Part shown: positions 2,760 to 36,030 of the stretch, piece after piece | Numbering within the stretch: position 1 is the stretch's first letter | Layout: every line of letters starts with the position of its first letter | Assembly (NCBI GenBank): GCA_051294905.1 | Contig: CM119371.1 | Location: 8,868,001 to 8,932,000, forward strand | Origin: Botryllus schlosseri | Taxonomy: Eukaryota | Length of the DNA stretch: 64,000 nt | Reading direction: 5' to 3' | Notes under the pieces: model-generated | Told to the model about the DNA's origin: nothing | The model's database searches: none | The model's input: the letters and a program-made list of their open reading frames with translations, nothing else | Position numbers and translations under genes: made by a program

Positions 2760-4869
2760 CATAGTGTCCTATATGGTGTCGACACAAGCAAATCGCACGG
2801 TTCAATGAAATTGTATCACGTCACAGTTTCCATTTGGCTACAGGCAATTTGACGGTGATTTTTGACCGGCTTGCCGAGCATTAAATTTGATGAATCGGGT
2901 ATCAATCGAAAGCTGACTCTGCACTGATTACGAAAATATAAATTTTATTCCGCTCGCGGCCCTGGAACCCCCACAATCAGCCCCCAATTATTCACTGTCG
3001 AGTAGATTGGCAGTGTGACGCAACAATGATGTCTGGCGAAACGAGAGACTAGCTCAAGAGCAAGGATGCGGCCGAGCGGCGAGAGTGGGATCAGCTGACG
3101 TCGCGGCAATAGCGATGTGCAAACGCGCCACAGAGAAACGCTGCGCTGTTGATACTTTTTCTATGCGTTTCGGTACAAGCGAGCACACACCAGCCTTTCC
3201 TTGACTTGTAAGGGTAGAACTGGGTCCACGGAATGTATTAGGGCCCTACCAATTTTCGCGCAATATCCTTCAGCTGATAAAGATATGTAGGCTACGTCTA
3301 AGTAGTCTACATTGGATATGTCAGATTATTATGATATCGATTGCCTTAGCCCGCTTGTTGCGTAGGGCTCGAGAGACACGTCGCGCTGTTGATGGCGGGT
3401 GTCGATACTTTCTATAGTCGCTTTTATGGTTAAGTGTGAGCAAGGAGCATTGAGCATGAGCATACATTACAAGCTTTTATTTGATCCGTATGGGTAGGAC
3501 TTGGTCCGCGAATGCAGCAGGTAAAATGTTGATTGTTGAATAAAGTTTAACAGCAGGAGTGTCGAATTAAACTGGTATCGCTGTCCGGATTCAATCCGTT
3601 ACTAGAAAGCTTGCGGGCCATACCTGCCAAATGATTCCAAAATGTTACCACCAAATTCACACCTTTGTTTTTCACTGGAATATATCTGATATCACTATAA
3701 ACATTGACGTTGGAATTTGGTTTAGCATTTTTCAATCACCAAATAGTTTTTTTGAATGCCGGGGACCTTTTGCGTCAAAAGTAATACAGTGGTATCACAG
3801 ATATTTGAAATATATTCATTCTGTAGCCTGTATATATATTCCTAATGTAACTTACGTAAAACGGATTTGCAGTATTTTTTTCGCATCTGTGAATAACTGA
3901 ATGTCCATTGTCCATTCGGCCCAACAGAGTTTGCACTTTCTCGCCTTCTCGGAATTTGGCAAGGTCACCGACGTGGTGCTTATGGGGACTAGAGTGAAAA
4001 CTCAACACTGTAGTTGTATTACTACAATATGATATATTTACATTATCTAAATTTGCTGTCTTGAGTGAATCTTATTACTTGAAAGTATATTTTTCTTACT
4101 AGAAATATCTCTAACAGCTGAAGGATTGCGCGAAAATTGGTAGGGACCAAATACATTCCGTGGACCCAGTTCTACCATTACAAGTCAAGGAAAGGCTGGT
4201 GTGTGCTCGCTTTTAGCGAAGCGCATAGAAGAAGTATCAACAGTGCCACGCATCTCTGGAGCCCTACGCAACAAGCGGGCTAAGGCAATCGATATCATAA
4301 TAATCTGACATATCCAATGTAGACTACTTAGACGTAGCCTACATATCTCTATCAGCTGAAGGATATTGCGCGAAAATTGGTAGGGCCCTAATACATTCCG
4401 TGGACCCAGTTCTACCCTTACAAGTCAAGGAAAGGCTGGTGTGTGCTCGCTTGTACCGAAACACATAGAAAAAGTATCAACAGCGCAGCGTTTCTCTGTG
4501 GCGCGTTAGCACATCGCTATTGCCGCGACGTCAGCTGATCCCACTCTCGCCGCTCGGCCGCATCCTTGCTCTTGAGCTAGTCTCTCGTTTCGCCAGACAT
4601 CATTGTTGCGTCACACTGCCAATCTACTCGACAATGAATAATTTGGGGCAGATTGTGGGGGTTCCAGGGCTATGAGTGGAATAAAATTTATATTTTCGCA
4701 AGCAGTACAGCGTCAGCTTTCGATTGATACCCGATTCATCAAATTTAATGCTCGGCAAGTCGGTCAAAAATCACCGTCAAATTGCCCGTAGCCAAATGGA
4801 AACTGTGACGTGATACAATTTCATTGAACCGTGCGATTTGCTTGTGTCGACACCATATAGGACACTATG
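2760..4869. mobile_element. Foldback element with ~615-bp inverted arms (P/Galileo-like, non-autonomous)
   Basis: 2760-3376 is the near-perfect reverse complement of ~4253-4869; termini CATAG...CTATG; 7-bp flanking duplication ATGGTAC; extra partial arm copy at ~4085-4245. Confidence 0.8.
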
Positions 4870-10806: not shown

Positions 10807-11321
10807 TAGGGCTGGGCAAAATCGAGTACCTGGGTGATTCGATTCTGAATCACGTATTCTGCTTCGCGTCGAGTCATCGAGTACTGCCCTGACGTCATAA
10901 CCGAATGTAGTATGTCAAAGTATGAATATGTACCCTTTTATGTCACCACATAGAATATGACGCCCGTTAGCCACCACACTAAAGATATTGCGGTATTTTT
11001 TAGACCAGACCGATTGCATTGTACTTGGTGACAATGTTGTGGAATTATCATGACTTCAGAAATGTGTTATTCCCATTATCGTTCGTAGCTTTGTACAATA
11101 TGTATTGTATTTTTATGTTATGGTACGGTCAGTGAAGATTGCAAGACATAAACAGTGAGAATTAGTATCGTAACTATAATTTTGGTTGATAAACAAACTT
11201 TCAGTGGCGAGGAGCGTTTCATTTAAGGACTCGAAACAATCGTATTTTAATACTCGACTCGAATCATTAAAATTATTACTCGATTCAGATTCGAGTACTC
11301 CAATGATTATGCCCAGCCCTG
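10807..11321. mobile_element. hAT-type MITE (TAGGGCTGGGCA family)
   Basis: TIR TAGGGCTGGGCA / TGCCCAGCCCTG; TSD ATCGTGAT / GTCGTGAT; second copy in opposite orientation at 44083-44598. Confidence 0.8.
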
Positions 11322-11536
11322 GTCGTGATGTAGGCCTACAAATCCTAATACGCCCATAAGCGTCACTGTAATGCAATGAAATAAAAAAATACTTATAGAA
11401 TTAGGCGTATTCTGTTCTAATCTACGGTGCGAACATTTTTCGAAGCATAAGATTTTTTTCCAGTTACTCCAATCTCCCAGTATTACATTAAACAGTTCTC
11501 GCGAAAATAGAACAATTTATTGAATTTCATCACAAA

Positions 11537-11830
11537 CATAGTCAGTGCTAAATTAGCGAATGATTTCTAGCGCATATGTCTGGACGCACAATTGCTAATG
11601 CTACCATAATGTCCTAAATGGTGTGGATACAGCGTGATGGAATGGCTCATTGCATTTGGGTTACGTCGCGCTTTATATTTGGCCAAAGGCAATTTTACGG
11701 CTATTTTTGAGAGACTTCTCGAGTGCTAAATCTCATAACGCGGGTATCAATGAAAAGCTACTGCTATCCTGATTACGAAAATATAGATTATATTTTGCTC
11801 ATAGCCCTTGAACCCCCCATAATCAGCCTC
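11537..11830 (+). repeat. Diverged fragment related to the foldback arm at 2760-2990
   Basis: Shared GGCAATTT.ACGG, GGGTATCAAT.GAAAGCT, CTGATTACGAAAATATA, GAACCCCC..AATCAGCC; starts CATAG. Confidence 0.6.
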
Positions 11831-12940
11831 GAATTTTGCATCGTGGCGAAGTTTAGCACTAATTCTGTCTGGTTCTTGCTCATGAGCTGCAGTCTCGTTT
11901 TGCCAGACAGCTTTGCTGCATCACTATCTCACCATGCCAAATTTCGTTATTGTTATACCGTAGTAGCCGAGTAGGATACAAGGTGCACTCATAACCTAAC
12001 TGCACCAAGCACGAACATTTTTAAAAGTTAATAAATTAGTTCGGCCAATGATAATGTCACTTGCATATATTGCGGGTTGCCTCTGTAACCAGTGGGCTCA
12101 TTTGGTAAACACAGGGTTATTCGGCGCATAGATTTATTCGGAGATAACATTATCGACGATTTTGGTGAAGATGCGCCAATCATTTTGTGCCAAGGTTTCA
12201 TCGCCGACCATCTTTCTGCGAGTGCAGACGCGAAGTCGGATGTTGGACGACACTTTCTCTTATAATGGCCAATATAATCAATTACGTAAATTGGGCGTAT
12301 CTTTATATTGGGAATGGGTACTAAAAGCAAGATATGAGTGACAATAAATCGCGCGAAGTGCTAAAAATATATCAAGTAAAATAAACCTACCACGAACTAT
12401 TCTACTTTATGGTCATATAGGGAGATCTACGAAAAATGTTGCTGGTCACGCCAATGCGTCGGAACTGGTATTTGAGTCACAAACATCCAAAATTTGTGGT
12501 CAGGCAAATCAAAGTTTTGGTTGGTCTTTGAAGTTCAAAGTATATATTAACTAAGTAATTTATTATTTGATATGGTAACTAATTTCGCGAATTATCTTGC
12601 AGGCTACTGAAAATCTTATCTCGGGCCACATGTGGCAGGCAGGCCACTGGTTGGGTACCTCTGATTTATAGATTGTTTATTGTCTGCTATAGACTAGAAT
12701 AATGTTGGGAACTCATGAACCAAACGCCCTATTTAACGGTACATGTGAAACATTTTAGTTTATCATACCATACATCTATAATGTGACGTAATTATTTATA
12801 GATTATATTTCATGATAACATCAGAATTTACATCAAACATTAGACGTAAAAAAATTTTATATTGTAGATTATGATAACATCAGAAATCCCAATTTGTCTA
12901 GGATTATGCGTGCGAAATATGATGACAAGGCTTTTTGCGG

Positions 12941-13122
12941 CATTTAATTTCCTGAAATTCGTGTTATTTACTATTTTTTATTCTTATCCTAAAAGATCTC
13001 CGTATGCTCTCTTCATCAGTTCCATATAGTACCATCATGCAGTATGCACCGTAGTAAATGCCGTCATTCTTATCAGATCATGTCGGTCAATGATTGACAT
13101 AATCACATACCCCATTTAAATT
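12941..13122 (-). repeat. LTR-like terminal direct repeat, 3' copy (segment A 12941-13091 followed by segment B)
   Basis: 12941-13091 matches 48630-48780 with 3 mismatches; contains AATAAA on the minus (coding) strand; lies ~240 bp beyond the env2 stop. Confidence 0.8.
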
Positions 13123-13357
13123 AACTTTCATGACCCGAGGGCAGTTCATTCAACTCTTATTTAGGCCTATTATAATTCATCAAGCACCTTAGGGCAGTTC
13201 AAATCCATAACTTTGATGTCATTTCGACATGTTGTGAGATACGATTTCGAAAGGTTGTTATTATAATCACGCAATATAATCGTGACTCGGAAGCGTATAA
13301 CAAAATAGTTTTTTTTTTTTATTAATTTTTTTGTTCTGTTTTATTAGTACCGTTTTA

Positions 13358-16300
13358 CTATGATACCATAACGCGTCCGCCCAATAGATTATCAGTTTCT
13401 TGTTCTACGACCTCCTTCTCTTGTAACACAGGTCTGGTATGCAACTTTCGCATGCTAATTCCGTGGTGGATGTTTCTATTGACAATTTTCCGCCTTGTAC
13501 TTGATTCTAACTTATTTCTTCTGCGATAATACTTCTTGCTAATGTATATCAAGGCTGCCACGGAAAAAAATAAGATAATGACGACCATCATTAATCTTTT
13601 ACTTTGGCCTTTTATTGGCCCTTGAATATTCCGTACATGAATGCCAGTCATTATGAAAGGTACTAGTTTTACCGAGTAGTTTTCTTCCATCTTTAATAAT
13701 TCATGTAGTTTTTCTGTTAAATTGAGCCTTATCAAAGTGTCTGTGGCATTCTTCGAATCGTACCCCCATATCTCAAGCGTGGAGACAGGGGCTTTAGCAG
13801 TTATCATTTGTGAATCGTTCCCTCCAAGAGTTGGGGGTAGACTTTTAATTGTATTCGGAATGCGAAGGGCCTTAGGGGTTTGTACCATGACCTCCTCTAT
13901 ACGGGAATCATTGAACCGTGTAATTACACGTGTCGTTGAAGGGTCGTCGATATTTTCACTGGACTCATTTATGGTGGTTTTGGTTCTATTGACCAACGGA
14001 TTCGGTTCCCTCGGTTCCGTCATATGCAATTCTCCACTCCTTCCGGCTTCTGGCAATGCTCTGGACATCGATGTACTTCCAGTGCCTTGCAAACCCCGAA
14101 TCACTTTCATCATTAGTATTGTGGCAGCGATACTTGGCGGTGTAGTTCCTGTTCTTTCGGTAGTAATCTCCGTCCCAGAAGAGGTCGTGCCATTTGGTAA
14201 AATTATCTTCGTCCCAATAGCAGCCGTGGTATTCGAGTGCATAGGTTTTATAATCATAACGGTCGGGTTACTCTCCTCCGTTGTACCCAAGGTCGGCCGA
14301 GTACTTAGAATTGTGGTTTCATAATCGTGGTCCCGAGATCGTGATGGATTCCTTATTACTTCAATTCTGTCTTCCAATGTCGAATTTGAGGTGTTTCTGG
14401 AGTAATAACTCAACATGGCTTGTAGAGGTACCTTTAGCGTGGAGGATATAACTGTTTCCGTTCCACTATTTATTAGGGATTCATCGCTATGTGATAATTC
14501 AGATTGGTTCTGTAGAGGGTGGCTTCTAATTGAATCCTTAGTTGTCGTAGAATTTGGGGTGGTCATAATTGTCGTAGAATTTGGGGTGGTCAGAATTGTC
14601 GTAGCGAATTCTGCATAGCTGGACATAGGACGTGTTGTTTGTTCCACCATTACCGTTTTCTCTCCTGAAGGGGTATTCTGGATCATCCTCCTGAGTTTTA
14701 AATTAGGTCTATTTGAAATTGTACTAATGTTCGCTGCATTCCCATACAGAGCGGGTCGTGTTGTTATAACTTCGGACCTCCATACGTCGGGAACAGGGAT
14801 CATGCTCCTTGAATCACTGTATTGTATGGGTTGTGTTGTTCTCACTCTTGAGGGAATAGTAGTACTATTATTCGTTATATTCCAGGGTTCTGTTGTTACC
14901 AAGAATAAATTGTTCCTTGATGACATCGAAAACTTTCCCTCCCCGTCTTTTTTCGAAAGGGTAGCAGTAACTGTTGTATAAGGAACGCCAGTCGATTTTT
15001 CCACAGAAGTGAGTATTGTCATGTTCGTCAAACGGGTTGTATGCGATGTGTTGTTATGATCTACCGGTCCTTCAGTAGGGGGAGAGGTGGGTTTGTTAGT
15101 AAATGGGTCCGGGTTTGTAGCAGAAATGTCCCCAGGCAGGGTGGGCGTCACATTAAAAAGGCGAACAGTAGTGTTAGACATGGACAATGTCCTATCCTTT
15201 CTGGTATCCACTTCAAACACGTTGGGTTGATAATCGGTCGTTATTCTAGCCTTTTCCGGAGGTGGTGAGGTTTGGATTATTTTACCAAGTGCCTCCGTTA
15301 TAGTTGTGTTGATGACGGTCAAATGCTCGTCCGTTGATGACCACAGAGGATTCGCCCTGCTCGTTTCATTTCCCACCACCAAAATCGTACTGGCGTGATC
15401 TGAAAAATTGCTAACACCTTGTTTAGTAAGTCTTCCCCTAATTATTGTCATAAGAGGAGGAGCTTGTGTGCTTTCCGACACATTTCCCGCCGTCGAGGCT
15501 GGGACTTCTATAGTGGTCAACACGTTATTGGGAGCTGCTGTAGTCGTGTTCACCAAACGTAAGCGAGGCCTTTTTTTGTAGGCGTATGGTGTGTAAATAA
15601 GGCTTCCATTCAGAAAGTATGCCTTGTAACACACGTCCGGAGCGAATAGGTTAGTTTGTCGGGATTTTGCTTCCAATAAACTCTGGGCAGTGGCCATTTG
15701 GCTGAACGCTCTGTTCAGCCTTACAGCGTCAGATCCTGAAATACCCTTCTGCTGTCGGTTAATTTTGTTGAGAATCATATTTTTTGCCCTTCTTGGTATT
15801 ATTTCGCGGCTCATAACCATCTTTAACCGAGACCTTATAATAGCTATTGGTCTGGTTAAATTTCTGATTATGTCGACAGCTCGTTTGCGGGCTTGTAGCC
15901 AATTCTGACGAAACCACCCTTCAAGACTTTGTCCATTCGCACCTGACATCGTGAGAAGGAATGCCTGTTCTCTTTTTCTTGCTAATCCAGGAATATGCGT
16001 AAGCGTAGTTCCGACAAATTCTCCTCCGTAGGTGTTGACAAAAATGGGATGATTCAATGATGGATCATACGTCACTAGATTCCCCATAATGAGTTTGGCA
16101 GCCACCCCGCTGAAAGGATTGGTGCACTCTGTTCGGTTTGCGACACGGCCCTGACAGTTCGGATCTAAAGCAGTCATCGACGGGGAGGTTATTTTTATAG
16201 GCATACTCCCTTTCTGACGTCTCTTCGGTCCATCCCGTAATCTGTTGTTGGCATAATATCCGCCCTCCAATGAAATGTTAGCACTCGCCTTAACCCAAAA

Positions 16301-17221
16301 TATTCGATTTGACATCACCTTATCGAAAACTCCTGTGGGCCATAAGTTTTCAGACGCTGCCAGTTGTTCACCATTGTTTATGGGGTTGTCCGTGTTTTCT
16401 CTCGTAGTAAATGTGTCAATAGTAATATCTTCTTCCTGAACAATAAGTCCAAAATCTACAATACCAATCACTGGGTTTTCACCAGTAAATCGACAAGTAT
16501 AACACGTCGGAGATTCTCCTTGAGTAGTTGAGCAGGCATGGAAGTTTCGCATTGTAATGATTAGTCTAAAAGAGACTGGATTCCAATCCCTCGTGCAGTC
16601 AGCTATTACCCCGCGATAGTCTTTGAGCAAACTTATCACGAGAAATTTATAAACAGTCATGATAGGTGTGTACTTATTCCCAGGATTTCCGCGAGGGAGG
16701 GTGAATTGGTTTTCAGCCCATTGCCAAACGAAGCGTGCATCATACTGTTCCGACCGATGGAATCGAATTCGCCTCCCCAGGTAGGAATAATTCAAGGGTG
16801 GTTTTATGTAGAGAATTCTCCTAAGACACGAACAAGTCTGTTCTAACTTCAAAGGATCATCCCAGTATTGACCCTGTGATCCCCTCGGGAGAAGGTTATT
16901 CCGCATTGTTTGTCCAATAGTTTGTATCTTGCCAAACTGGGCATCATATCCGACAATTTCTCCATCAGATTTATAGCGATGTATTTGTTCGGGGTTCGTG
17001 TTAGCCAATGTTATTTCTAAATTGAATAACTCTTGAAGTAGTGCCCTCGAGCTGTTAAACAAGCTCTCGTCATAACGGGTCCATGTCGAAGTGTTCAAGC
17101 TTTCAATAGGTAATATCTTCATGTCAATAAAAGGGACTCGGCCAGTAACATGAGAACGTCCTGACCACGCGGCCGACAGTAAAAGGACCATAACAACGAT
17201 GATGTGATCCAACTTCTTCAT
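13358..17221 (-). CDS. Envelope-like type I glycoprotein 2 (1287 aa): Env1-paralogous N-terminal domain, long S/T/N-rich mucin-like stalk, TM and basic tail
   Basis: Signal peptide MKKLDHIIVVMVLLLSAAWSG; Cys and motif colinearity with the 785-aa ORF; many N-x-S/T sites; TM LMMVVIILFFSVAALIYI followed by KKYYRRR. Confidence 0.8.
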   Translation of the reverse strand: MKKLDHIIVVMVLLLSAAWSGRSHVTGRVPFIDMKILPIESLNTSTWTRYDESLFNSSRALLQELFNLEITLANTNPEQIHRYKSDGEIVGYDAQFGKIQTIGQTMRNNLLPRGSQGQYWDDPLKLEQTCSCLRRILYIKPPLNYSYLGRRIRFHRSEQYDARFVWQWAENQFTLPRGNPGNKYTPIMTVYKFLVISLLKDYRGVIADCTRDWNPVSFRLIITMRNFHACSTTQGESPTCYTCRFTGENPVIGIVDFGLIVQEEDITIDTFTTRENTDNPINNGEQLAASENLWPTGVFDKVMSNRIFWVKASANISLEGGYYANNRLRDGPKRRQKGSMPIKITSPSMTALDPNCQGRVANRTECTNPFSGVAAKLIMGNLVTYDPSLNHPIFVNTYGGEFVGTTLTHIPGLARKREQAFLLTMSGANGQSLEGWFRQNWLQARKRAVDIIRNLTRPIAIIRSRLKMVMSREIIPRRAKNMILNKINRQQKGISGSDAVRLNRAFSQMATAQSLLEAKSRQTNLFAPDVCYKAYFLNGSLIYTPYAYKKRPRLRLVNTTTAAPNNVLTTIEVPASTAGNVSESTQAPPLMTIIRGRLTKQGVSNFSDHASTILVVGNETSRANPLWSSTDEHLTVINTTITEALGKIIQTSPPPEKARITTDYQPNVFEVDTRKDRTLSMSNTTVRLFNVTPTLPGDISATNPDPFTNKPTSPPTEGPVDHNNTSHTTRLTNMTILTSVEKSTGVPYTTVTATLSKKDGEGKFSMSSRNNLFLVTTEPWNITNNSTTIPSRVRTTQPIQYSDSRSMIPVPDVWRSEVITTRPALYGNAANISTISNRPNLKLRRMIQNTPSGEKTVMVEQTTRPMSSYAEFATTILTTPNSTTIMTTPNSTTTKDSIRSHPLQNQSELSHSDESLINSGTETVISSTLKVPLQAMLSYYSRNTSNSTLEDRIEVIRNPSRSRDHDYETTILSTRPTLGTTEESNPTVMIIKPMHSNTTAAIGTKIILPNGTTSSGTEITTERTGTTPPSIAATILMMKVIRGLQGTGSTSMSRALPEAGRSGELHMTEPREPNPLVNRTKTTINESSENIDDPSTTRVITRFNDSRIEEVMVQTPKALRIPNTIKSLPPTLGGNDSQMITAKAPVSTLEIWGYDSKNATDTLIRLNLTEKLHELLKMEENYSVKLVPFIMTGIHVRNIQGPIKGQSKRLMMVVIILFFSVAALIYISKKYYRRRNKLESSTRRKIVNRNIHHGISMRKLHTRPVLQEKEVVEQETDNLLGGRVMVS

Positions 17222-17343
17222 CGTGGTTCTTGTTATAAGTTTATAAATCTTAGTCGTATTCCTATACCTAAATGCAGTTGTTTATGTCATTAGTCTGTCT
17301 TTAGTCACTACTTGTCTTTTCTTATAAAGAATCTTTGTATTAC

Positions 17344-19701
17344 CTATCGCCGAATAGTCAGGGGTGCCATATAAGCCGTATATGTCGTCAACTCATTTCG
17401 GTTATTTCGACCTTGTATCTTATCATGTGTTCTCCTTTTGTTAGGGAAGACGACCGGGTAGAGTTTAATCATACAAATAAGTATTCCGATCACAACCACT
17501 ACAATTATAATCGGTGTGAGTATTCCCGTTAGACTCCCAAATATCGCACCCAAGCCAGAACCAAATAACCCGCTCACTCCGTCAATACCCTGGGAGAGTA
17601 TTTCCCCAGCTCCTTCCGCTACGCTCCGAATAATCGTTCCTGTGCCATTAGCGACGGTCTTAACGGCATCCCCGAAGTCATCAAAGAATTCTTCCCCTAT
17701 TACGCGATTCAAGTGGATAAAACTGATATTATCATACTCCATATTTGAAGTATTTACAAACACGCCGCTGTCCACATCTTCTTGCCAGCGTTGCAATTCA
17801 ATTTCAGCTTGGTAGTCGATGCTCTGTATTTCTCTTCGCGTGTTTTGTAATTCCAACGCCTGATTTTCGGAAACATTTGCATAGTCGCCTTTCAGCTCAA
17901 TCATTTTCTCCGCAATTTCGCGTAGGCTTAAAATCCCTGACTTAATTCGTACAGCGTACGCCTTGTTTCTATCAAATATAGGTTTCGCTGTTAGATTTTG
18001 TAACTCCTGCATAACCAATTGATTAATGCTCAACTCAGCCAATGTCATTTCTTGTACGGTTTGGATCGTGGATAGATAACTATCCACTTGTGCTAATATC
18101 ATGTTTCGATTGGTCCATATCATACTGGTGATAGTTTGGAGCCTTGCCTCGGTAGCTGCTTCCCTTCGCAGATTTGTCAGGATCAACTCGTTCAATTTCT
18201 GAGCCCGGGCAACCCCTATAAGGGAAAGATCGTTTAATCCGTCAGCTACCGTCTTCAAATCATTTTCTATTTGTGTAAATCGGGCGTTCAGTTGCGCAGT
18301 TAAGTCGTCCATATTTTTGTTGATCATGTGCTGTAGATTTGAAGTTACGGCCAGAGTTAAAATTGTCGAGAATGCTAATACGAATAATGAGAAAAACATT
18401 CTTTTTCGCCTTCCCGTCCCTCCTGGAAGTGTAGAATTCCCGTCCTCTAAACCTGTTTTGTGACCTCCCAGTACCACGAGAGGTTTTCCGGGGTATCTTC
18501 TTCGATTGGCCTGGGAATCGTAGATAATGTCGTCCCAATAGGACAGTTTCATGTGCAAGTCCCCAACAGGATATTCACAGGTTGCTTTATTTTCCCGTAT
18601 TCGTCTCACACACCGCTGATCGTCCTTCAATAACGAAGGGTATTGGCGGTATATCGGTAATATTCCCGAAATCTTGATAGGCTTCCTTCCATCCATATAA
18701 TCTAAGCCGTATTTATTCGGATAAGTGGGTCGAATCCAAATTATATTTTCCGGTAAAGTTGGTTTGTCACCCAATATAGCATTTCTCCACACAGGTGCTG
18801 ACGGGTGGTAATTGTGTACTCCAGGCACATATTCCATTTCAATGTCTAGCGACGTCTTTAAATTTCTAGTTGGGTCCTCTTCCTGTATAAGAATTTTGCT
18901 AGGATGGGGTTGATAAGCCACAACCAAACCGCGAAAAGTACAGGTCGTACATCGTAATATCTGGAGTAGACGAACACAATCCACCAGATCTGTAGAACTA
19001 TCGTTGTAGATATTTCTTTGTAACATCATTGCCTCGGTCCTTACCGTATAGGTGACACAATTTATTCTAATACTAGAATATGTGGCAAACATTTTCAACG
19101 CTTTTAATTTATACTTCATAATGGCTATCTGGAATAGGCCGCGAGGATTCCAGCCTCTAATCGTTTCGTCCGTATCGTTCCACCTCCATACCAACCGGTA
19201 ATTATTTCCAGTAGGTCTCACATATACATTTTCCGATTCCAGAGCTTTCAAGTTCAGATCAGGCGTAATATATGCCTTTGTTCGTCGACACAAGCAAGTC
19301 TTTTCGAACGCATTTATATCTTCCCAATAATGCCCAGTCGGATACATGTATTCTTGAAACGTGATCTTCTCGGCCTTCACATAACCAAACGTGGATGAGA
19401 AAAACAATCCAGGGTTACTAAAGTTATAAGTTGAATTCCTTATGTCCCAGCACGACGCTAGAGAAATGTGTTCCCAAGGCGATGATTTCAATTCGGTCCA
19501 ATCTGCGGGAAATTTCTTAGGCAGCCTTCCAAACTGAGCCTGGACTATCGTTCCAGCTCTGTCGTCATAGTATGGTATTGTGCTTGCGGTGGTAGTTATA
19601 TTACTTGCAGATATTGTCGATCCCGTCGTCCTCGGCAATAGCACACTAAGTGTATGAAGCAAGCCACACAAGTAATAATTAATAGTAGAAACGCTGACCA
19701 T
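17344..19701 (-). CDS. env: Envelope fusion glycoprotein-like protein 1 (785 aa)
   Basis: Signal peptide; furin site RRKR (18400-18411) immediately followed by hydrophobic MFFSLFVLAFSTILTLAV; heptad-repeat region; Gly-rich amphipathic membrane-proximal segment; TM IIIVVVVIGILICMI; Kozak context GCACCATGG. Confidence 0.85.
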   Translation of the reverse strand: MVSVSTINYYLCGLLHTLSVLLPRTTGSTISASNITTTASTIPYYDDRAGTIVQAQFGRLPKKFPADWTELKSSPWEHISLASCWDIRNSTYNFSNPGLFFSSTFGYVKAEKITFQEYMYPTGHYWEDINAFEKTCLCRRTKAYITPDLNLKALESENVYVRPTGNNYRLVWRWNDTDETIRGWNPRGLFQIAIMKYKLKALKMFATYSSIRINCVTYTVRTEAMMLQRNIYNDSSTDLVDCVRLLQILRCTTCTFRGLVVAYQPHPSKILIQEEDPTRNLKTSLDIEMEYVPGVHNYHPSAPVWRNAILGDKPTLPENIIWIRPTYPNKYGLDYMDGRKPIKISGILPIYRQYPSLLKDDQRCVRRIRENKATCEYPVGDLHMKLSYWDDIIYDSQANRRRYPGKPLVVLGGHKTGLEDGNSTLPGGTGRRKRMFFSLFVLAFSTILTLAVTSNLQHMINKNMDDLTAQLNARFTQIENDLKTVADGLNDLSLIGVARAQKLNELILTNLRREAATEARLQTITSMIWTNRNMILAQVDSYLSTIQTVQEMTLAELSINQLVMQELQNLTAKPIFDRNKAYAVRIKSGILSLREIAEKMIELKGDYANVSENQALELQNTRREIQSIDYQAEIELQRWQEDVDSGVFVNTSNMEYDNISFIHLNRVIGEEFFDDFGDAVKTVANGTGTIIRSVAEGAGEILSQGIDGVSGLFGSGLGAIFGSLTGILTPIIIVVVVIGILICMIKLYPVVFPNKRRTHDKIQGRNNRNELTTYTAYMAPLTIRR

Positions 19702-19857
19702 GGTGCCGGCACAGGTACGTCGGGAAATTTCATTAATTATAATTTTTTCAAATAGCTGTAAAGTTATCTGTCTGTAAAAGCATAAATAGGGTTAGGCGAA
19801 TTGCGTTCTGTGTTCGAAGCCGTAATATTGTCTCAGAGAGGAGGGATAGAGTATGTT

Positions 19858-20862
19858 TTAGGCGACAGTGGTACCACATACATTGAAACGAGGGTCCTCC
19901 CTTATGGACCTTAACAATGACTCAAATATGTCGTTTCTGTCATGCTGACGTTTGTATAACCACTCATCTACGTACTCTTGTAACAAGTGTCTGGCCAGTC
20001 CACGCGAGCGCCTCATGTGGTGCTTCAGACTAGACCAAGCCGCTTCCTGATCGTTCGTATGCGTCCCATCAGGCGCTCGAAACATAGCGCTATGGTCGAC
20101 TGATCTGTGTTTATAATCTTGCCCCCACTCCTCTATGCCATTATAAGAGGGGTAACAATCCGTTAATATGGTAGATCCCCTGGCTATATTATTTACAAGT
20201 ATACGCTTCATTACCGCTGCCGTCCTGTCAGATGTTATTTCTGCAAACATTTCTCCTGTTGCTCGGTCAAGTCCACCCACAACCCAAACTGCCTTCCGGG
20301 CTGAAGGATCATTGGTCGTGTCGCGACGTCGCTTCGCCAGATGCGACTCGTCCACAACTATGATACTTTGGTAGCCGCCTAGTTTTCGTTTATGTCGTCG
20401 TAAATCCGCAGCACACACTCGTCTCAAGCATCCAGACCAAAACACAATAGATCGGAGGCTAATTTCTGATTCGTGGGAGATGTGATTTTGCGGGCTGTCG
20501 TGGGCCCAGAAATATGTCATTATAAGTAATTCAGGTAGCCCAACCTTGCTATTACTAAATATAGATCCTTTCCGAATAGAGGAGGTTGTCCTGCACTCAT
20601 TTTGTTGGCAGCGATATCTCCATCCATCATCGCTGGCTCCTGTTCGCTCTTCTACCATTGTGGATCTGCATTTTCGACAGGTCATTTGCCGAGACAGTAA
20701 TCCTTGGCTTCTCATGAACATAATGCAATCGCGGGTATTCAGTAAGACTCCAGATTGGGCCAGACGTAGTACATTATGGGGTACTTCTTGAGCGTCTGTA
20801 AGGGTAAAAATAAAATAGGTACAGATATATTCTTGGTTGGTTTGCACCTCTTGTGTATTCAT
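19858..20862 (-). CDS. IS1595/ISXO2-like (Merlin-type) DDE transposase, copy 1 (334 aa)
   Basis: N-terminal CxxC..DGWRYRC..C Zn ribbon, SIRKGSIFS, VVDESH, VWVVGGLDR, STILTDCYPSY, VDHS..F..PDGTHTNDQEAAWS, YVDEWLYK. Confidence 0.9.
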   Translation of the reverse strand: MNTQEVQTNQEYICTYFIFTLTDAQEVPHNVLRLAQSGVLLNTRDCIMFMRSQGLLSRQMTCRKCRSTMVEERTGASDDGWRYRCQQNECRTTSSIRKGSIFSNSKVGLPELLIMTYFWAHDSPQNHISHESEISLRSIVFWSGCLRRVCAADLRRHKRKLGGYQSIIVVDESHLAKRRRDTTNDPSARKAVWVVGGLDRATGEMFAEITSDRTAAVMKRILVNNIARGSTILTDCYPSYNGIEEWGQDYKHRSVDHSAMFRAPDGTHTNDQEAAWSSLKHHMRRSRGLARHLLQEYVDEWLYKRQHDRNDIFESLLRSIREDPRFNVCGTTVA

Positions 20863-20906
20863 GTCTCTTTCTTGTAACTTAAGATAACACTGTGAAATTT
20901 TACTGA

Positions 20907-23900
20907 TTATTGTTTTTTGTCCGCAAACTGTATTACTGCGGAAGGGATGGGTCCTCTACACAAAATTACATCTGGGTTGGGTGACTGCCACATAATCATA
21001 CCCAATTCCCTGATTTTGCTGGCGTCAATTTGTAAAGCCACCTTTCGTCCCCGAGATTTCCCACTTCGGGTTAGGCTAAAGTGAATGTATTTCCGGGGCA
21101 TTCTTTCAAGCTCAGTCTGCATAATCCGTTGAGCGCCATTCCGCGTAGTCATGTGGTACAGCTTGTCGTTACCAGTATATTCCTCATAAGCGGGAGGCTC
21201 ACCCACGGTATGTCCGTGTGCAGCCGCGAGCCCCTCATCTTGAAGAACAGCCCTGGAATTGTTTTGCATGATTGACCTTAGGAAGTGACTTTGGAACTCT
21301 TTCCCCAGTTTTCTCCTTAGGATTTCTTGCAGATGTCCCCAGGGATGAAATCCACCATGGCTGTGGTCACATACCTCGTGCCTACAGTGCCGCATTAAAA
21401 GTCTCTGTATGAATTCATGTCTGGCAGAGTCCAATTCGTTTGGTGCGTCCGCACTCTTCGTCGTAGGTAAAGTGGTCCATACACAAGGGTCGTCTTCCCC
21501 TGCGGCCATTTCCATCCAATAAGAACGAGAAAGCCCATCGGATGTGAATACCTGTAGCGTACTTAAATGAATCACTTTATCTATTTGGAATCCTGATAGA
21601 TGGTTGAGCCATCGCTGGATTAGTGGTTTTGGGCTCGGATTCGCAGCTTTTTCTGTCATCCTTTTCAATAGTCCGAATACCCCTGTATTGTCTGTGATAA
21701 TGGTAAATGGTATTGCGCGCAACATAGATTGCCATTTTTCCACCGAATCTTTTAGAGCTTTGAGCTCTTTTGTACACGGATCATATGCCTTTGCCGTTTG
21801 GGTAGTCCATTTTTGGCTATAAAAAGCAATCGGGTATATCTTCGTAAAGGGCGGTTTTTCTCCTTCTTCTGTCTGAAATATTACGGAACCGAATCCTACA
21901 TCAGAAGCATCGGTTTCGATATACAGCGGGAGTTCTGGGTCCAGATGATATAGTACCCTTGCGTCGTCCAGTAAGGCTTGGGCCACCTTATAATCATGCA
22001 ACAACTCATCGTTCCATAGTAAGGGCGTTACTCTTCCTTGTGTGGCCGGTACTTTCCCCGTTAACGCGTCGAACTTTGCTAGCTTCAGGCTCAATTCAGG
22101 TATGTGTTCTGAGATGTATCTCAATGCCCCGATCCAACCCCGTAGCTCATAAATGTTATGAGGTGGCGCAAGTTCTTTCAGGGCTCTAACTCGTTCGGGT
22201 TGGACCTCAATTTCTTTGCCTGTTAAGGTTGCGCCCAGCAGATTCACTCGCCGCTTGCCAATGAAACACTTATTGATGCTCACTGTCAATTTCATCTTAG
22301 CCAATTGTTCAAACACCATTCTGAGCAGCACCAGGTGATCCTCAATGGTCTTTGTGCTCAGGAAGATGTCATCAATGTAGGCCTCCATAGGCGTCACAGT
22401 GGACTCATCAGTCCTCCCACATTCTCGCATGAAGCGTTGATAATTCTCAGTGATGGGTTTAACCACACATTCCTGCATATTTGAAGTCCAAAGGGCTACT
22501 GCGGTCCGAAGACCCATTGGCATCTTTCGCCAGCGTATATGCCTGCCCTTTACGGCAATGCCTACGTATTGTTTTGATCTTTCCGTCATTTCCATGTGAA
22601 AATAGGCCTTCTTCAAATCCAATAGGGATAGTACCTCACGACCTTGAGCAAGCTGCTTCACGTCAGGTACTAATGGAGGGGGTACCTCTATGGATTTGAT
22701 GGCTGCATTAAGGGGTTGGAGATTCTGTACAACCCTCCATGCCTGTTTCCACCCGCCTTCTTGCTTCTGTCTTTCGTTCATTTTTTGAGGTACTACAAAT
22801 ATGGCCAGTTTCCATTCAGCAAATCCTTGTTCAATGACTTCGAGATCTAAAAAATTATCCACAGCCTCTTTTAAGGCTTTTGCCTGTTCTTCGCCCTTTA
22901 GATTATAAGGCCCTGACACAAAAGGTTTGGTTGAAGGGTCCTTCAATTCGATGTCACATTTGTATTTCATGGCTTGTGGGGCTTTGAGGTGTCCTCGTAG
23001 ATCTTCAAGTTCCGTAGCGTAAGGTTGATATACCTTCCTCCATTCTGCCTCAGGTACGATAGTGTTATCTGGGCTGGTAAGATCCGGTGGCTTATAGGGT
23101 GATTTCGCCAGTTCTACAGCTTGTTTACACAATCTTTCTAATTCGTCTCTAACGTCTGTCTTGGTCCCTTTACACAGTTCATACGTAGTTATCGGACCGC
23201 GAATTGGCCTGGTTGGGCCTTGACGTATTTCCGGTACCGATGGAGAGGGGGCGAGGTCTCCTTTGGTCAGTGGGGCTTCCACACTCGACTTGTTCTGCCT
23301 CTGAAATAGGCGCGTGCCCGCACCTATTTTCACGCCGACGACTCCCTTTTCCCTTGTCGCCGGGGGCCCTTTTTCTGGTAGGGTTTGCATATTTCCTCCA
23401 GACTCTTCGTCATCCACCCTGTTCTCTTTCCCAGAGGAGATGGCGACAGCTGCATTTGAAATAGTTTTCTCGGTTGGTGGCACGACGAATGCGACCATCG
23501 GGTCGTGGACAATATGTCGGCCGTTTTTATCAGGATCCTTCCATACGCCCGTGTCCTGATTATTGCTAGCGGGAATTCTTCGCTCAGCATGATTGGATTT
23601 GGGGGGGACACTACCCCCCATATTGAGATTAGCGTGACCGGACGTCCTCCCTTGTGCGCTAAATCTCTCCGAGAAAGAGGGATTGCCGAAATCCCGAATA
23701 ACGTCAGCGGGGCTTCCACACTCGACGTTGTAGAATGTCGCAGCTTCCATCGCTCCGTCACCAGAAGCAACGTTGCAAGTGCTACTTCTGTTTCCGGTTC
23801 CTTCATCGCCAATTAACGCGGCAAACGTCAATTCATTATTAACTGCAGTAGGGTCTTTAAATTCCATTTCTATAGATGGAAGTTGCTGAACTTGGTCAAT

Positions 23901-24323
23901 CCACTTCAACCCTATAATATTTAATGGTACTCTATCACCAGTCGCAAATGGAACTGGTAAGCCATCTATCATGATTATTATCAGGTAATCAACACAGGAC
24001 AATCCACCTATGCCGCGCAATTTCATTTCGAAAGGTTGCCTTTTGGCCCAACTAAGGGGGTATTTATCCTTGGCTACCTCCTTCAAAATCAGATTTGGGA
24101 CACTTCCCGTGTCGGCTAAGAATTTAGTTCCTGTTTTTTTGTCCATTAGGTACAATAAACGACCACCGAACAATTCAGTAAAGTCAGCCTGTGGCGTATT
24201 GTCCGGTATGTCGAGAAAAGTAAATAGGGGTAAAGAAGAATTATGTACAGTTTTAACGTGGTAAGGTAACACTGATTCGGGCAACTGATTTACCGGATCC
24301 ATCAGTGCCCCCAGTCGTTTTTT
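20907..24323 (-). CDS. pol: Pol polyprotein (aspartic protease, spacer, RT, RNase H, Tpt1/KptA-like domain); probably made as Gag-Pol by -1 frameshift; no integrase
   Basis: LADTGS protease (24105-24113); RT motifs WRVVQNLQPLN, LDLKKAYFHM, MPMGL, YIDD (22368-22379), LLG; Ty3/gypsy-type RNase H ETDASDVG..PIAFYS..KELKAL..IITDN. The ORF-track start at 24362 is TTG. Confidence 0.92.
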   Translation of the reverse strand, partial: KKRLGALMDPVNQLPESVLPYHVKTVHNSSLPLFTFLDIPDNTPQADFTELFGGRLLYLMDKKTGTKFLADTGSVPNLILKEVAKDKYPLSWAKRQPFEMKLRGIGGLSCVDYLIIIMIDGLPVPFATGDRVPLNIIGLKWIDQVQQLPSIEMEFKDPTAVNNELTFAALIGDEGTGNRSSTCNVASGDGAMEAATFYNVECGSPADVIRDFGNPSFSERFSAQGRTSGHANLNMGGSVPPKSNHAERRIPASNNQDTGVWKDPDKNGRHIVHDPMVAFVVPPTEKTISNAAVAISSGKENRVDDEESGGNMQTLPEKGPPATREKGVVGVKIGAGTRLFQRQNKSSVEAPLTKGDLAPSPSVPEIRQGPTRPIRGPITTYELCKGTKTDVRDELERLCKQAVELAKSPYKPPDLTSPDNTIVPEAEWRKVYQPYATELEDLRGHLKAPQAMKYKCDIELKDPSTKPFVSGPYNLKGEEQAKALKEAVDNFLDLEVIEQGFAEWKLAIFVVPQKMNERQKQEGGWKQAWRVVQNLQPLNAAIKSIEVPPPLVPDVKQLAQGREVLSLLDLKKAYFHMEMTERSKQYVGIAVKGRHIRWRKMPMGLRTAVALWTSNMQECVVKPITENYQRFMRECGRTDESTVTPMEAYIDDIFLSTKTIEDHLVLLRMVFEQLAKMKLTVSINKCFIGKRRVNLLGATLTGKEIEVQPERVRALKELAPPHNIYELRGWIGALRYISEHIPELSLKLAKFDALTGKVPATQGRVTPLLWNDELLHDYKVAQALLDDARVLYHLDPELPLYIETDASDVGFGSVIFQTEEGEKPPFTKIYPIAFYSQKWTTQTAKAYDPCTKELKALKDSVEKWQSMLRAIPFTIITDNTGVFGLLKRMTEKAANPSPKPLIQRWLNHLSGFQIDKVIHLSTLQVFTSDGLSRSYWMEMAAGEDDPCVWTTLPTTKSADAPNELDSARHEFIQRLLMRHCRHEVCDHSHGGFHPWGHLQEILRRKLGKEFQSHFLRSIMQNNSRAVLQDEGLAAAHGHTVGEPPAYEEYTGNDKLYHMTTRNGAQRIMQTELERMPRKYIHFSLTRSGKSRGRKVALQIDASKIRELGMIMWQSPNPDVILCRGPIPSAVIQFADKKQ
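20910..21425 (-). other. Tpt1/KptA RNA 2'-phosphotransferase-like domain at Pol C-terminus
   Basis: Colinear family motifs: CRH (LRH), GGF (dGw), IMQNNSR, AAHGHT (RAnqGHS), LYHMT (lyHGT), ERMPRKYIHFS (kpmkRqhVHLS), ALQIDA, QSPNPDVILC..PIP. Confidence 0.8.
24262..24323 (-). promoter_or_regulatory. -1 programmed ribosomal frameshift signal (A AAA AAC plus stem-loop/pseudoknot)
   Basis: In the gag frame GCA AAA AAC (24317-24323); pol is in the -1 frame; downstream GGGCACTGAT pairs with ATCAGTTGCCC, and loop GGTAA could pair with a later TTACC. Confidence 0.8.
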
Positions 24324-27295
24324 GCTAATCTCAACCCCTGGTCCAATTCCTCGTCGGTCCAATATGGATTAATACGGGATTGTGGGGGATAATATGGCTG
24401 GGTCCATGCTACCGTATCGGCATTGTGAGTGGGTCCCCGTGGTCCCCATTGATCTCTATCGCGCCAATGGGTCCTGTCTCTATTCTTAGGTCTTTCGTTA
24501 TAATACGTGTCACACAGGGCTGTTCTCTCAACAAATGAAGGGGACCCTTGTGAGGCTAAGTATCGATCCAAATCAGGTATCGAGAGTAGTCGATTTTCAG
24601 TTAGAAAAGGACGCCAATTCCTTTCTACAAATTCCTTTATGCGAGGTGGTACAGGTCGTCGTCGCTTTTGGATTACCCATCCCTCGGTATCGTCTTTAGT
24701 TAGGACCTCCTCATTCAGCCATAATATGAATTTGGCTACGCAATTTCGAGATTGGTGCCCTGGTGCCTTGCAATAATAACATACAGACAATGTTTGCCCC
24801 TCTGACGGGTTCAAATATAAGCCTAGAGGTGCAAAAATATTGGGGTTACCAAGGAAATTATACCTCTCACCTTGACTGTTGGAAATCTGGCTCGCCTCGT
24901 GGCTACTCGATGGAGTTGCTTGAGAATAGTCCCTTCCGAAGCCCGAATCCTGCGTCTGCGAAAATCGCGGTTGTCCTCGGTTTAATGTTCTCCTTTCCTG
25001 GTTCGGTCGCGAGGTCGGAGAGTTCTGAGAGTAGTGACCGTTACCTCTATCTCCCGCTGGACGTCTCTGCGAAGGCGAGATCCCCTGTGGTCTATTCGCT
25101 ACCCCACCCTTCGAAGTGGGTCTTTCCCGACTGGGATTTCCGTGGGCTATTACCGTCGTGGGGAATCGGTTCGTCTTTGCGGCCCTGCCTGGGTTTATCC
25201 TTGTCACAGGCTGGTACGTTGTCCGGGCGCGTCTTCCGACGTCCATAGGTTGTCGACTCTGAGGTGACACGTTGTTGAGCATAGATTGTGAAGAGGGAGA
25301 GGGCGAGTTGATAATGGGGGGCGTGGGGGTACGTATCGGCTGGGAATTGTCTATTCTCCCATTTCCAGTGGGCTGGGTTGGGTAGCTAGGCATCATGTGT
25401 CCGGCAGGTTGTACATTGTAAATATGTACGGGTGGCAGAGAAGGAGCACTTACAGCGTGTGCCTTTTTGTTGGGAGCCCTCGTCTCGCTAGGGAACCTCC
25501 CTTCTTCCTGATCGTCTAGGAACTCGGAATTCCAGAACATCTGTAACTCCTCAGCCACTTGTTGCCACGTCCCCTCTTCCCAACCGCGGATCATCATTCT
25601 CAACGCCTGAGGCAGTTGACGTCGTAGATGTCTGAACAAACGCAGCCCGTCGGGGTTTTTCTTAATGTAGCTTCCCATATTTATTTCGAGTTGCTTCAGC
25701 ACACTATTCAACAACGGCAGTGGTTCTTCATTCCAGGAGTAATTACTCCGAAATTCGTTAATGATCTTTTCGTTATTCACTAAACCTTGAGGGTTGGAAA
25801 GGTTGAGGGACCTCATAACGGAAAACCAACTCGGTTTGCCCGAGTTGGTGTTGAAAAAGTTTCCCAACTGTCTGGCCTGCTTTATACGTCCTGCCTGTCT
25901 CAGCTTTTTCTGCATGGCGTTTGATAAGATTATATCTTCGTTCGTATCCCCCTCTCCATGATCGATGCGAGCCATCGTATTAGCCATCCATTTAACAAGG
26001 GGCATGTCGTCCGGGTCCATCATGAGTTGCATCATTTCCTTTTCGGTTTGTAATCTGATAGGCCGTTCCCCAGCGTGGAACTCACGTGCTTGACTCGGGG
26101 TCCCCAATTCCCCTGGTGGATTGCAAGTATAACCTTGTTGCTGTTCTACAATTCCTTCCTCACTGTAATCAGGAGTGGACTCAAACCGTGGGGAACCAGC
26201 GGTGAATCGAGACGGGAAGTAAATCTGCCTAAAATTGCTAGGATCGCGGAGAGCGTCTTGTGGTTTGTGGCCATTATTGTTAAGGATAGAAGTCTTGGTT
26301 TCCCTATCTTCTAGGGGACCTCTTCCAATCCTTTCAAAAGTAACGTGCCTGGTTTCGTCTGGCTCGCTCCTCGCTCGTCTTTTGACGGAGATTTTATCGC
26401 TTGTTCGTTGACCGTCCTGTCCACGTTGGTCGTCCTGCCTACCCCGGTCTCCTCCTATTCGTACCAATCCGGCCGCCCCATGATACTGTTTCGTGGAGTC
26501 GTGTTCATGTTGATCTTCCACGCTCGGTCTAGGACGGATCGGCGTGTACATGTCAGTGGAGGGACGTCCTGATGATACGGTCGGAGGGCCGTCCGGCCCA
26601 AATTTATCCAAGGATTTCGAGCGTCTCATCCCTTTGGCACTAAGCAGTCCCTGACCGGGACTGGCTGCCAGTCTAAGAGCGGGACTGGCTGGTTGTAGGT
26701 TTCCGGTTTTTTGAATCGGTTGTTGCTGGGGTGATTTGTGTGTTGGACCTTCCGACTGAGTCTGGGGGGAGGCCGTATATACAGCTGTAATTGTATGGCA
26801 ATCAAGTCCTTTGCTCACATGAAATTTGGGCCTAAGGACGGCTCCCCCCCATGACGGGTTTGTTGGGTGGTGATATGCTGGTGGGGGTGAAGTGGGTATT
26901 ACTGTTAGCGCGTTAGATGGTCGAGAGGTCTCCCCGATTACCGACGCATGTTCCTTTCCGAGGTCGAATTCAGCCTTCAAAACTTCGTTTAGTACATCTG
27001 TGGAAACTTTACCACTGACCTTGGTGGTAGCGTCACATACTGCTTTCAAATCAGCCTTAGCCTGTTTTACCTCTTTCTTTATTTTGTCCAATTCTTTCAT
27101 AGTACCCGGCAGGACTGTTTTGACTTCCTTCAGCAGTTTGGTTTGGTCTGCGACACTTTGAGTGAGTCTTTTTTCCTGATCCTTTACATTTTCATGGCGT
27201 AATTGTGTGGCTCTGAACAGCTGAATTCCTTGTTCTAATTCCGCAGCTGTCTCCGTTGATCTTTTCTTTTTGAACAACTTCACCATTTTTTCCAT
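24302..27295 (-). CDS. gag: Gag-like polyprotein (997 aa)
   Basis: N-terminal coiled coil, PPAY motif, central helical domain, CCHC knuckle CYYCKAPGHQSRNC (24740-24781), position directly upstream of and overlapping pol. Confidence 0.85.
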   Translation of the reverse strand: MEKMVKLFKKKRSTETAAELEQGIQLFRATQLRHENVKDQEKRLTQSVADQTKLLKEVKTVLPGTMKELDKIKKEVKQAKADLKAVCDATTKVSGKVSTDVLNEVLKAEFDLGKEHASVIGETSRPSNALTVIPTSPPPAYHHPTNPSWGGAVLRPKFHVSKGLDCHTITAVYTASPQTQSEGPTHKSPQQQPIQKTGNLQPASPALRLAASPGQGLLSAKGMRRSKSLDKFGPDGPPTVSSGRPSTDMYTPIRPRPSVEDQHEHDSTKQYHGAAGLVRIGGDRGRQDDQRGQDGQRTSDKISVKRRARSEPDETRHVTFERIGRGPLEDRETKTSILNNNGHKPQDALRDPSNFRQIYFPSRFTAGSPRFESTPDYSEEGIVEQQQGYTCNPPGELGTPSQAREFHAGERPIRLQTEKEMMQLMMDPDDMPLVKWMANTMARIDHGEGDTNEDIILSNAMQKKLRQAGRIKQARQLGNFFNTNSGKPSWFSVMRSLNLSNPQGLVNNEKIINEFRSNYSWNEEPLPLLNSVLKQLEINMGSYIKKNPDGLRLFRHLRRQLPQALRMMIRGWEEGTWQQVAEELQMFWNSEFLDDQEEGRFPSETRAPNKKAHAVSAPSLPPVHIYNVQPAGHMMPSYPTQPTGNGRIDNSQPIRTPTPPIINSPSPSSQSMLNNVSPQSRQPMDVGRRARTTYQPVTRINPGRAAKTNRFPTTVIAHGNPSRERPTSKGGVANRPQGISPSQRRPAGDRGNGHYSQNSPTSRPNQERRTLNRGQPRFSQTQDSGFGRDYSQATPSSSHEASQISNSQGERYNFLGNPNIFAPLGLYLNPSEGQTLSVCYYCKAPGHQSRNCVAKFILWLNEEVLTKDDTEGWVIQKRRRPVPPRIKEFVERNWRPFLTENRLLSIPDLDRYLASQGSPSFVERTALCDTYYNERPKNRDRTHWRDRDQWGPRGPTHNADTVAWTQPYYPPQSRINPYWTDEELDQGLRLAKNDWGH

Positions 27296-27301
27296 AATTA
27301 T

Positions 27302-30959: not shown

Positions 30960-31147
30960 TCTTTCTCGTTTATCGAATCTCCCAAGTGTTGGTAAAAAGG
31001 CCTTTCGTTGTCTGGTTCGATAACGTTTCTTCAGTGTTATGTTGTTGTCTTGCGTTAATAAAGGTCTTCGTATGATTCACCAATATAATAAATATCGTTA
31101 TAACATATGTAGCGACACCCTTTTATGCTGAAAGTTATAATTTAATT

Positions 31148-35685: not shown

Positions 35686-36030
35686 GTTGAAATATCACAA
35701 AACCAACCACAGCTAATTCACAACATAAACGGGCTAACAATTAATCCCGAAAGAACTATTTTTCGCACAACCAGCACTGTTAGTATCGTATATATACCCG
35801 CAGTGCAATCATGGATCGACGAGTCTCGCATGGGTAAGCCGAATAATTCATACTCTCGGAAAACTGAGAGTATCCGCTACCGTGTAGTACATGATTTTAC
35901 CATTGCTAGTAAATCAGGTGAGTTGACCGTGAATATCATTGTCTGACTGTTTCGCTGGCGTAATTGGCTATAATCTTAAAGCTATTAGGCCAATAAAGGT
36001 GGTTCCAGGAAAATTTATTGTAACCGCCGG

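Follow-up and report, generated by a model that had tools for sequence, protein, structure and literature searches.

Merlin-type ends and a subterminal direct repeat around a gag-pol-env gene set in Botryllus schlosseri

How is an element inserted when it carries retroviral genes and no recognizable integrase, and what is the role of a repeat that brackets these genes without resembling a classical long terminal repeat (LTR)? Both questions are raised by a locus in a 64,000-nt stretch of Botryllus schlosseri DNA (GenBank assembly GCA_051294905.1, contig CM119371.1, positions 8,868,001 to 8,932,000 of the forward strand; "the window" denotes this whole stretch, to which all positions refer). 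A sequence-only reading had identified a 151-bp segment, A, and a short segment, B, on either side of gag and pol, and had taken them for a permuted terminal repeat in an element with no tRNA primer-binding site (PBS) and no target-site duplication (TSD). We find that 12708-48907 is a composite in which a Merlin/IS1595-type shell encloses an enveloped retrovirus-like module that lacks an integrase, and that A lies inside the true ends.

Ends of the element and layout of the repeats

A first TSD scan, restricted to the edges of A, yielded no convincing duplication of at least 4 bp. We then compared all exact 8-bp direct-repeat pairs between 11000-13360 and 46850-51000 (n = 393) and evaluated them against a Markov null (500 runs). 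Only 1 of the 393 pairs enclosed a sequence with GG...CC ends, and this pair, at 12708/48907, also displayed the best identity between terminal inverted repeats (TIRs; 14/24), a combination of end motif and TIR identity matched in 0 of the 500 null runs. The element so delimited is 36,200 bp long, with an 8-bp TSD, TAATGTTG, on both sides; its inverted repeats are imperfect (14/22 identical) and slightly short of the 24-bp minimum quoted for Merlin. Hence the element does have a TSD, contrary to what had been reported, and the repeats are subterminal rather than terminal, since A starts 233 bp inside one end and stops 127 bp inside the other. Because the TSD lies outside A and abuts Merlin-type inverted repeats, the last insertion step was a DDE transposition and not an integration at an A/B junction. 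Overall, we are very confident that the last insertion left Merlin marks, that the element encodes two DDE-intact Merlin transposases, and that A, located within the ends, flanks the complete gene set. The features at both ends are, from left to right:

12700-12707, left copy of the TSD, TAATGTTG
12708-12729, plus strand, left imperfect TIR (3' in gene sense), starts with GG, 14/22 identical to the right TIR
12708-12940, unique 233-bp end segment with a 57-bp tandem duplication (74%), no inner copy
12941-13091, left copy of A (3' copy in gene sense), with one sense AATAAA at 12982
13002-13023, minus strand, inner TIR-like motif within A, 11/12 against the left TIR
13083-13122, left copy of a 40-bp direct repeat that includes the palindromic A/B junction and is made up of the tail of A, B itself (13092-13112), and the opening 10 bp of A
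48581-48600, partial B, duplicated at a 25-bp period
48600-48639, right copy of this 40-bp repeat, with B at 48609-48629 between the tail and the start of A
48630-48780, right copy of A (5' copy in gene sense), with AATAAA at 48671 and 48661 and the inner TIR-like motif at 48712, minus strand
48781-48907, unique 127-bp end segment with a TGACGTCA palindrome, which we take to be cAMP-response-element-like; candidate promoter; no inner copy
48886-48907, minus strand, right imperfect TIR (5' in gene sense), ends with CC
48908-48915, right copy of the TSD, TAATGTTG

The earlier description of A itself was accurate: both 151-bp copies are in direct orientation and differ at 3 positions (98% identity, BLAST E 1e-71). 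The palindrome GTCAAT-G-ATTGAC at the A/B junction was likewise recovered, at 13086 and 48603, while the inverted ends placed at 48608-48782 proved one base longer (9 bp, 48607-48615 / 48775-48783). The window contains exactly three copies of the core of B (13092, 48584, 48609), each on the inner side of A, and no further copy with up to 3 mismatches was detected elsewhere in it. The proposed order, A-B at one end and B-B-A at the other, holds in part: the left end reads A, B (21 bp), and the first 10 bp of A, and the right end reads a 17-bp partial B, the last 8 bp of A, B, and A, so that the additional right-hand B is only partial. Given this layout, the 40-bp direct repeat (1 mismatch between copies) flanks the interior as well, and the ends can be read in two equivalent ways, as a 151-bp direct repeat or as a 40-bp direct repeat in a 172-bp unit. 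The 3-bp sequence CAT occurs at both outer edges of A; it had been considered as a TSD of A and was dropped after the outer 8-bp TSD came to light. Rfam gave 0 matches at either end, and both ends fold no better than shuffled sequences (z -0.20 and -0.54).

The TIR-like motifs within A (13023 and 48712) are the window's only matches at the 11/12 level apart from the left TIR itself, and 15 of 20,000 null 151-mers contained such a motif in a post hoc test. On the left, 12708-13023 forms a small TIR-to-TIR unit of 316 bp, and on the right the outer and inner TIR are 195 bp apart. As the bases past the inner motif differ from the TSD, the last move used the outer TIR.

Genes, relatives and surroundings

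All genes of the element are on the minus strand, and open frame covers 98% of 13358-27301. The suggested linkage of the repeat to gag and pol stands, A bracketing the whole gene set:

13358-17221, minus strand, 1287-aa membrane glycoprotein; N-terminal half paralogous to the surface part of env (23%, E 2e-16), Ser/Thr-rich region, C-terminal hydrophobic segment
17344-19701, minus strand, 785-aa env-like protein with a basic RRKR site, a run of hydrophobic residues, long helices, and a transmembrane segment at its C-terminus
19858-20862, minus strand, Merlin/IS1595 transposase 1, in the usual place of the integrase; D, D, E intact; without a TIR or TSD of its own
20907-24368, minus strand, pol: protease (DTGS), reverse transcriptase (RT; YIDD), RNase H (RH), C-terminal Tpt1/KptA domain; no rve integrase
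24302-27295, minus strand, gag-like open reading frame (ORF) with a CCHC knuckle, overlapping pol in a different frame
28444-28944, minus strand, 166-aa ORF without family match
30024-30959, minus strand, Merlin/IS1595 transposase 2, 41% identical to transposase 1; catalytic D, D, E preserved; not flanked by any convincing TIR or TSD
31148-31660, minus strand, 170-aa ORF, paralog (31%) of the ORF at 38024-38542
33445-35685, nested host insert with an 8-bp TSD, which we take to be hAT-type; holds a second insert (33845-35088) with its own TSD
38024-38542, minus strand, 172-aa ORF, paralog of the ORF at 31148-31660
38963-39330, nested host miniature inverted-repeat transposable element (MITE) with an 8-bp TSD
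45595-46701, minus strand, 368-aa ORF; no Pfam or PHROG match, Atlas below 0.8, AlphaFold pLDDT (a per-residue confidence score) 35

Both transposases carry PF12762 / DDE_Tnp_IS1595 (E 7e-15 and 4e-19), with D, D, and E invariant in 5/5 aligned rows. Neither gene is flanked by a convincing TIR or TSD, which sets the pair apart from simple nested Merlins. A Pfam scan detected no rve integrase in pol, and no tyrosine recombinase was matched among 15 ORFs (Pfam) or 10 ORFs (PHROGs). At the C-terminus of pol, the Tpt1/KptA domain (20907-21400) is kept in relatives; speculatively, it might heal the phosphate ends of a cleaved RNA primer.

The 785-aa env-like protein presumably has a class I fusogen layout; its AlphaFold model has a pLDDT of 32, and its Atlas match is a lead only. 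The 1287-aa glycoprotein had no Pfam match. The two glycoprotein genes (13358-19701) share a paralogous N-terminal half, with fusion-type helices and a basic cleavage site in the upstream gene only and a mucin-like stalk in the downstream one. Splice-acceptor-like sites precede 3 of 11 starts (0.15 expected per start), but 2 of these 11 start positions (pol and gag) do not coincide with an ATG; the sites were not used here. The 5' leader holds a 43-bp tandem duplication (97%, 47528-47611).

Three nested host inserts, with 8-bp TSDs, lie between 33.4 and 39.3 kb, and read depth indicates more high-depth host repeats at 33-37.7, 40.5, and 44 kb; none was seen in the block from 13.4 to 31.7 kb. 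One host repeat (79%) is found both inside and outside the element (44084-44596 and 10809-11320).

Next, we searched for relatives of pol among proteins of 621-1978 aa. The 98 matches comprised 5 at 37-46% identity over 97-99% of the query region and 93 at 21-27%. In all five close relatives the rve domain (PF00665) is missing, and all stop shortly past the Tpt1-like region. One cluster among the pol relatives has 215 members, and a profile search without length limit returned further fragments among the best 150 listed. From marine metagenome contigs, 2 of 50 loci were family members with gag and pol, too short to reach the element ends; in one of them (L002), pol ends after Tpt1 without rve. 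Viral contigs gave no match for pol, env, or Merlin, and genome contigs a single Gypsy-like match at 24%. In a FastTree phylogeny of 91 rows, the nine family rows formed one clade (support 100) with no sister relation resolved among Gypsy and caulimovirus rows, in a tree with long branches, only 2 caulimovirus-like rows, and 11 of the rows P0006-P0098 left out for short coverage. The best PDB match for pol was 8r0s, an "Enzymatic polyprotein" that we take to be the RT enzyme of cauliflower mosaic virus (CaMV), followed by Ty3 RT.

Homolog searches gave 3 matches for the Merlin transposase and 2 for env. A Merlin homolog (88%, P0113) and an env homolog (56%, P0116) are on a Logan contig that is apparently shared, to judge from its length of 7067 nt, and transposase and env appear to be neighbors in a relative. 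The gap between 88% and 56% on this contig might reflect an exchange of modules or rapid evolution of env.

Sequencing reads point to further copies. In one run (X1), 45298-45758 and 46040-46689 are present in a second, diverged version, and three others (X5-X7) contain fragments, differing little from the element, of either transposase 2 or the 5' region, so that related copies exist, although the reads do not show their ends. Of the interval 12400-22000, 78-95% was covered by 4 runs of one sample, which may be the source of the window, and 5-6% in three other samples, the latter being no evidence; no RNA run was listed among those containing it. Read mapping of 4 runs on 29700-49699 was dominated by nested host repeats, with neither junction visible, and uncovered bins were not used. 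The bin with the right A and B had a summed depth of 12-64 in X5-X7, versus thousands to more than 100,000 in bins with MITEs. This speaks weakly against an abundant satellite, as depth is no copy number.

Around the element, a hAT transposon (49020-52169; transposase ORF 49870-51789, TIRs, TSD CTGTAGAG) lies ~105 bp to the right of its TSD. Farther away are a foldback element (2760-4869; 634-bp inverted arms, 97%, 842 bp in between), an RT fragment (PF00078, 52928-53815) that is probably non-LTR, and an NLR-like host gene (61357-62925), an ORF with NACHT and NOD2 winged-helix domains.

Role of the subterminal repeat

The role that we tentatively favor for A, at slightly less than an even chance, is that of the terminal redundancy (R) of the module's RNA. 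This reading, made from a single copy, draws on the position of A around all genes, its 98% identity, the AATAAA that lies 36 nt upstream of its 3' end, and the lack of an adjoining PBS or polypurine tract (PPT). Specifically, a promoter in the unique 127 bp would start an RNA within the 5' copy of A, the polyadenylation signal of the 3' copy would define its 3' end, and strand transfer between the two copies would keep them alike. Lacking an integrase, reverse transcription would then yield a circle with one A, as in pararetroviruses. For comparison, the terminal redundancy of the CaMV 35S RNA comes from a conditional polyadenylation signal, and this RNA gives rise to a circle (PMC4462095).

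Such a cycle raises a precise problem: as neither the 127-bp nor the 233-bp end is repeated farther in, an RNA starting and ending in A, inside the element, cannot rebuild the unique TIR ends. The complementary DNA might regain them by recombination at A, either with a resident TIR-A-TIR shell (511 bp) or with a full copy, after which the Merlin enzyme could move the whole unit as DNA; the reverse A-by-A recombination would release a circle and leave the shell behind. More broadly, and with slightly more doubt than belief, we envision an enveloped reverse-transcribing lineage of marine animals in which integrase and LTRs were swapped for a Merlin transposase and TIRs, copying or spread occurring at the RNA stage and insertion by cut-and-paste. 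There, A would be a cis-acting hinge, i.e., both terminal redundancy and recombination site, coupling the RNA and DNA stages.

Priming signals conform to what had been reported. There is no TGG within 150 nt inside the 5' copy of A, hence no tRNA PBS, and no PPT beside A, the sole purine run of at least 8 being an A12 about 200 nt from A. A scan confined to the surroundings of the repeats found neither a tRNA-Met PBS nor polypurine primers of the Caulimoviridae type adjoining them, and the window contains no tRNA gene.

Several observations weigh against an RNA-end role for A or against the Merlin-type ends. The TIR-like motif suits a DNA-end module no less than an RNA end, and Merlin elements can have 163-bp tandem repeats (PMC8101967). 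If GG ends are not required, an equal TIR identity with an 8-bp repeat is attained in 76 of 500 null runs. Folding did not support self-priming of the Tf1 type at the 9-bp inverted repeat: for an RNA that begins at 48783-48780 the pairing probability does not exceed 0.14, and values of 0.72-0.99 were reached only with upstream sequence included. In addition, the sense strand of the element contains 35 AATAAA motifs, and sense AATAAA at 13345 and 13323 with an A12 run right after the last gene (13309-13345) could terminate transcription upstream of A and might mark the end of a separate mRNA.

Chief among the rivals is a scar formed at the DNA level, close to the tandem-repeat alternative raised earlier. 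A small Merlin shell (TIR-A-B-A-TIR, 683 bp, a 1.9-unit tandem repeat) would have captured a retro-module, with crossover or repair at B duplicating 40 bp; A would then stand outside reverse transcription, and the element would spread by DNA transposition only. Removing the interior at the 40-bp repeat indeed gives a clean A-B-A, and both the TIR-like motif within A and the tandem repeats on record for Merlins fit such a shell. The 10 bp past the left B also match the right and not the left A at A position 8, but a single mutation in the left A accounts equally well for this. The two repeats are similarly diverged (3/151 for A and 1/40 for the 40-bp repeat), so that neither is demonstrably older. 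A scar would also leave unexplained the intact gag, pol, and env in the largely open block at 13358-27301, conserved in distant relatives, and we consider this history unlikely, though still a serious one. The idea of a landing in a ~172-bp tandem repeat persists in this form, as part of the Merlin shell (interior removal leaving the 683-bp unit), and not as a host satellite.

Alternatively, the cycle might begin with a circle: the transposase excises the element and the ends join, giving a circle that reads A-233-TIR/TIR-127-A, akin to a 2-LTR junction. RNA of more than unit length across this junction would be reverse-transcribed with A as redundancy, and Merlin would cut TIR/TIR to integrate. 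This is the only reading that places both TIRs on the RT product, as entry into a new host would require, and it would suit a pol that lacks an integrase and resembles a pararetrovirus RT; for Teratorn, an excised circle was proposed, not shown (PMC10175614). However, a circle has terminal redundancy with one A, which leaves the second unexplained, and the transcript would have to be longer than 36 kb and read through several AATAAA. We regard this cycle as improbable.

Decayed LTRs are a still more doubtful origin of the repeats. Here, 48608-48782 (175 bp, TG...CA in gene sense) would be the 5' LTR of a Gypsy-like provirus located between Merlin ends, and the 3' LTR would have lost its last 21 bp. 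The TG...CA ends, the 8-9-bp inverted termini, and the Gypsy-type domain order of protease (PR), RT, and RH are as expected, but neither PBS nor PPT is present, rve is missing in pol and its relatives, and the 3' copy begins with TC instead of TG, with B in front and no 4-6-bp TSD at A.

Finally, a circle that integrates at the A/B junction in the manner of the tyrosine-recombinase split-direct-repeat elements Ngaro, PAT, and VIPER would fit the permuted A/B order, the palindromic junction, and the CAT beside both outer edges of A, but is very improbable given no tyrosine recombinase in the 15 ORFs scanned (the 368-aa ORF could formally be a remote one), an order of A-B ... B-A rather than A1 ... 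B1-A2-B2 (PMC6681497), and real ends outside A with an 8-bp TSD, which largely refute it. From the original view of split repeats, non-canonical reverse transcription or a circular intermediate is still plausible; the outer TSD contradicts integration at the A/B junction.

Different life cycles would be indicated by solo shells of 511 bp or 683 bp, by circles with one A or with a TIR/TIR junction, and by RNA ends in A. The locus is also a warning that LTR finders and split-repeat readings put the ends of such elements in the wrong place.

Comparison with known systems

Class I and class II elements are told apart by their integration, and here an intact gag-pol-env set from a distinct, integrase-less RT lineage is found between Merlin ends flanked by a Merlin-type TSD. 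The closest LTR systems are Ty3/Gypsy elements, including the giant Burro (PMC6431247), which share the CCHC gag, PR-RT-RH, direct repeats around the genes, and, for Burro, a similar size. Unlike these, the B. schlosseri element has no rve, PBS, or PPT, its repeats are not terminal, and its TSD is 8 bp instead of 3-6 bp; complete terminal LTRs with a 4-6-bp TSD, an rve integrase, and a PBS with a PPT were not found, in line with the earlier view that this is no classical LTR element. It likewise differs from Troyka/Kuafuorterviruses (PMC12440569, PMC11673190), Troyka being described with CG..CG LTR ends, a 3-bp TSD, an integrase, and no env, features not seen here. Ngaro, PAT, and VIPER of the DIRS order (PMC6681497) similarly have two permuted repeat blocks near their ends and RT-RH without a DDE integrase, whereas we found no tyrosine recombinase, another block order, and TIRs with an 8-bp TSD outside the repeats.

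With Caulimoviridae (PMC4462095; PDB 8r0s), the element has in common PR-RT-RH without integrase and, as proposed only, a terminally redundant RNA. In contrast to these, it has an animal-type host, env-like genes, a Tpt1 domain, no tRNA PBS or PPT by the repeats, and an integrated form with TIRs and TSD.

The shell matches Merlin/IS1595 in all tested features, i.e., GG ends, an 8-bp TSD, and DDE_Tnp_IS1595 with an intact triad; Merlins are reported with 5'-GG ends, 8- or 9-bp TSDs, and highly imperfect TIRs (PMC8101967). Compared to the elements in that paper, whose main text does not contain the term "reverse transcriptase", this one stands out by its 36.2 kb, two transposase genes, gag-pol-env cargo, and inner direct repeats around the cargo. 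We found no retroelement with a Merlin/IS1595 transposase in the literature searched, Repbase, subscription journals, and supplements lying outside this scope. The novelty lies in the composite element; the role of A is one that we infer from a single copy.

The nearest parallel is Teratorn, a piggyBac element fused to an alloherpesvirus (PMC10175614, PMC6431247), in which virus-like genes also lie between cut-and-paste TIRs with a TSD and which also has internal TIRs (PMC6431247). The two differ in transposase, Merlin versus piggyBac, and in cargo, which is reverse-transcribing here and a double-stranded DNA virus in Teratorn, so that here the TIRs must somehow survive an RNA stage. Taken together, and its reverse-transcribing cargo aside, the B. 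schlosseri element would appear to work most like Teratorn.
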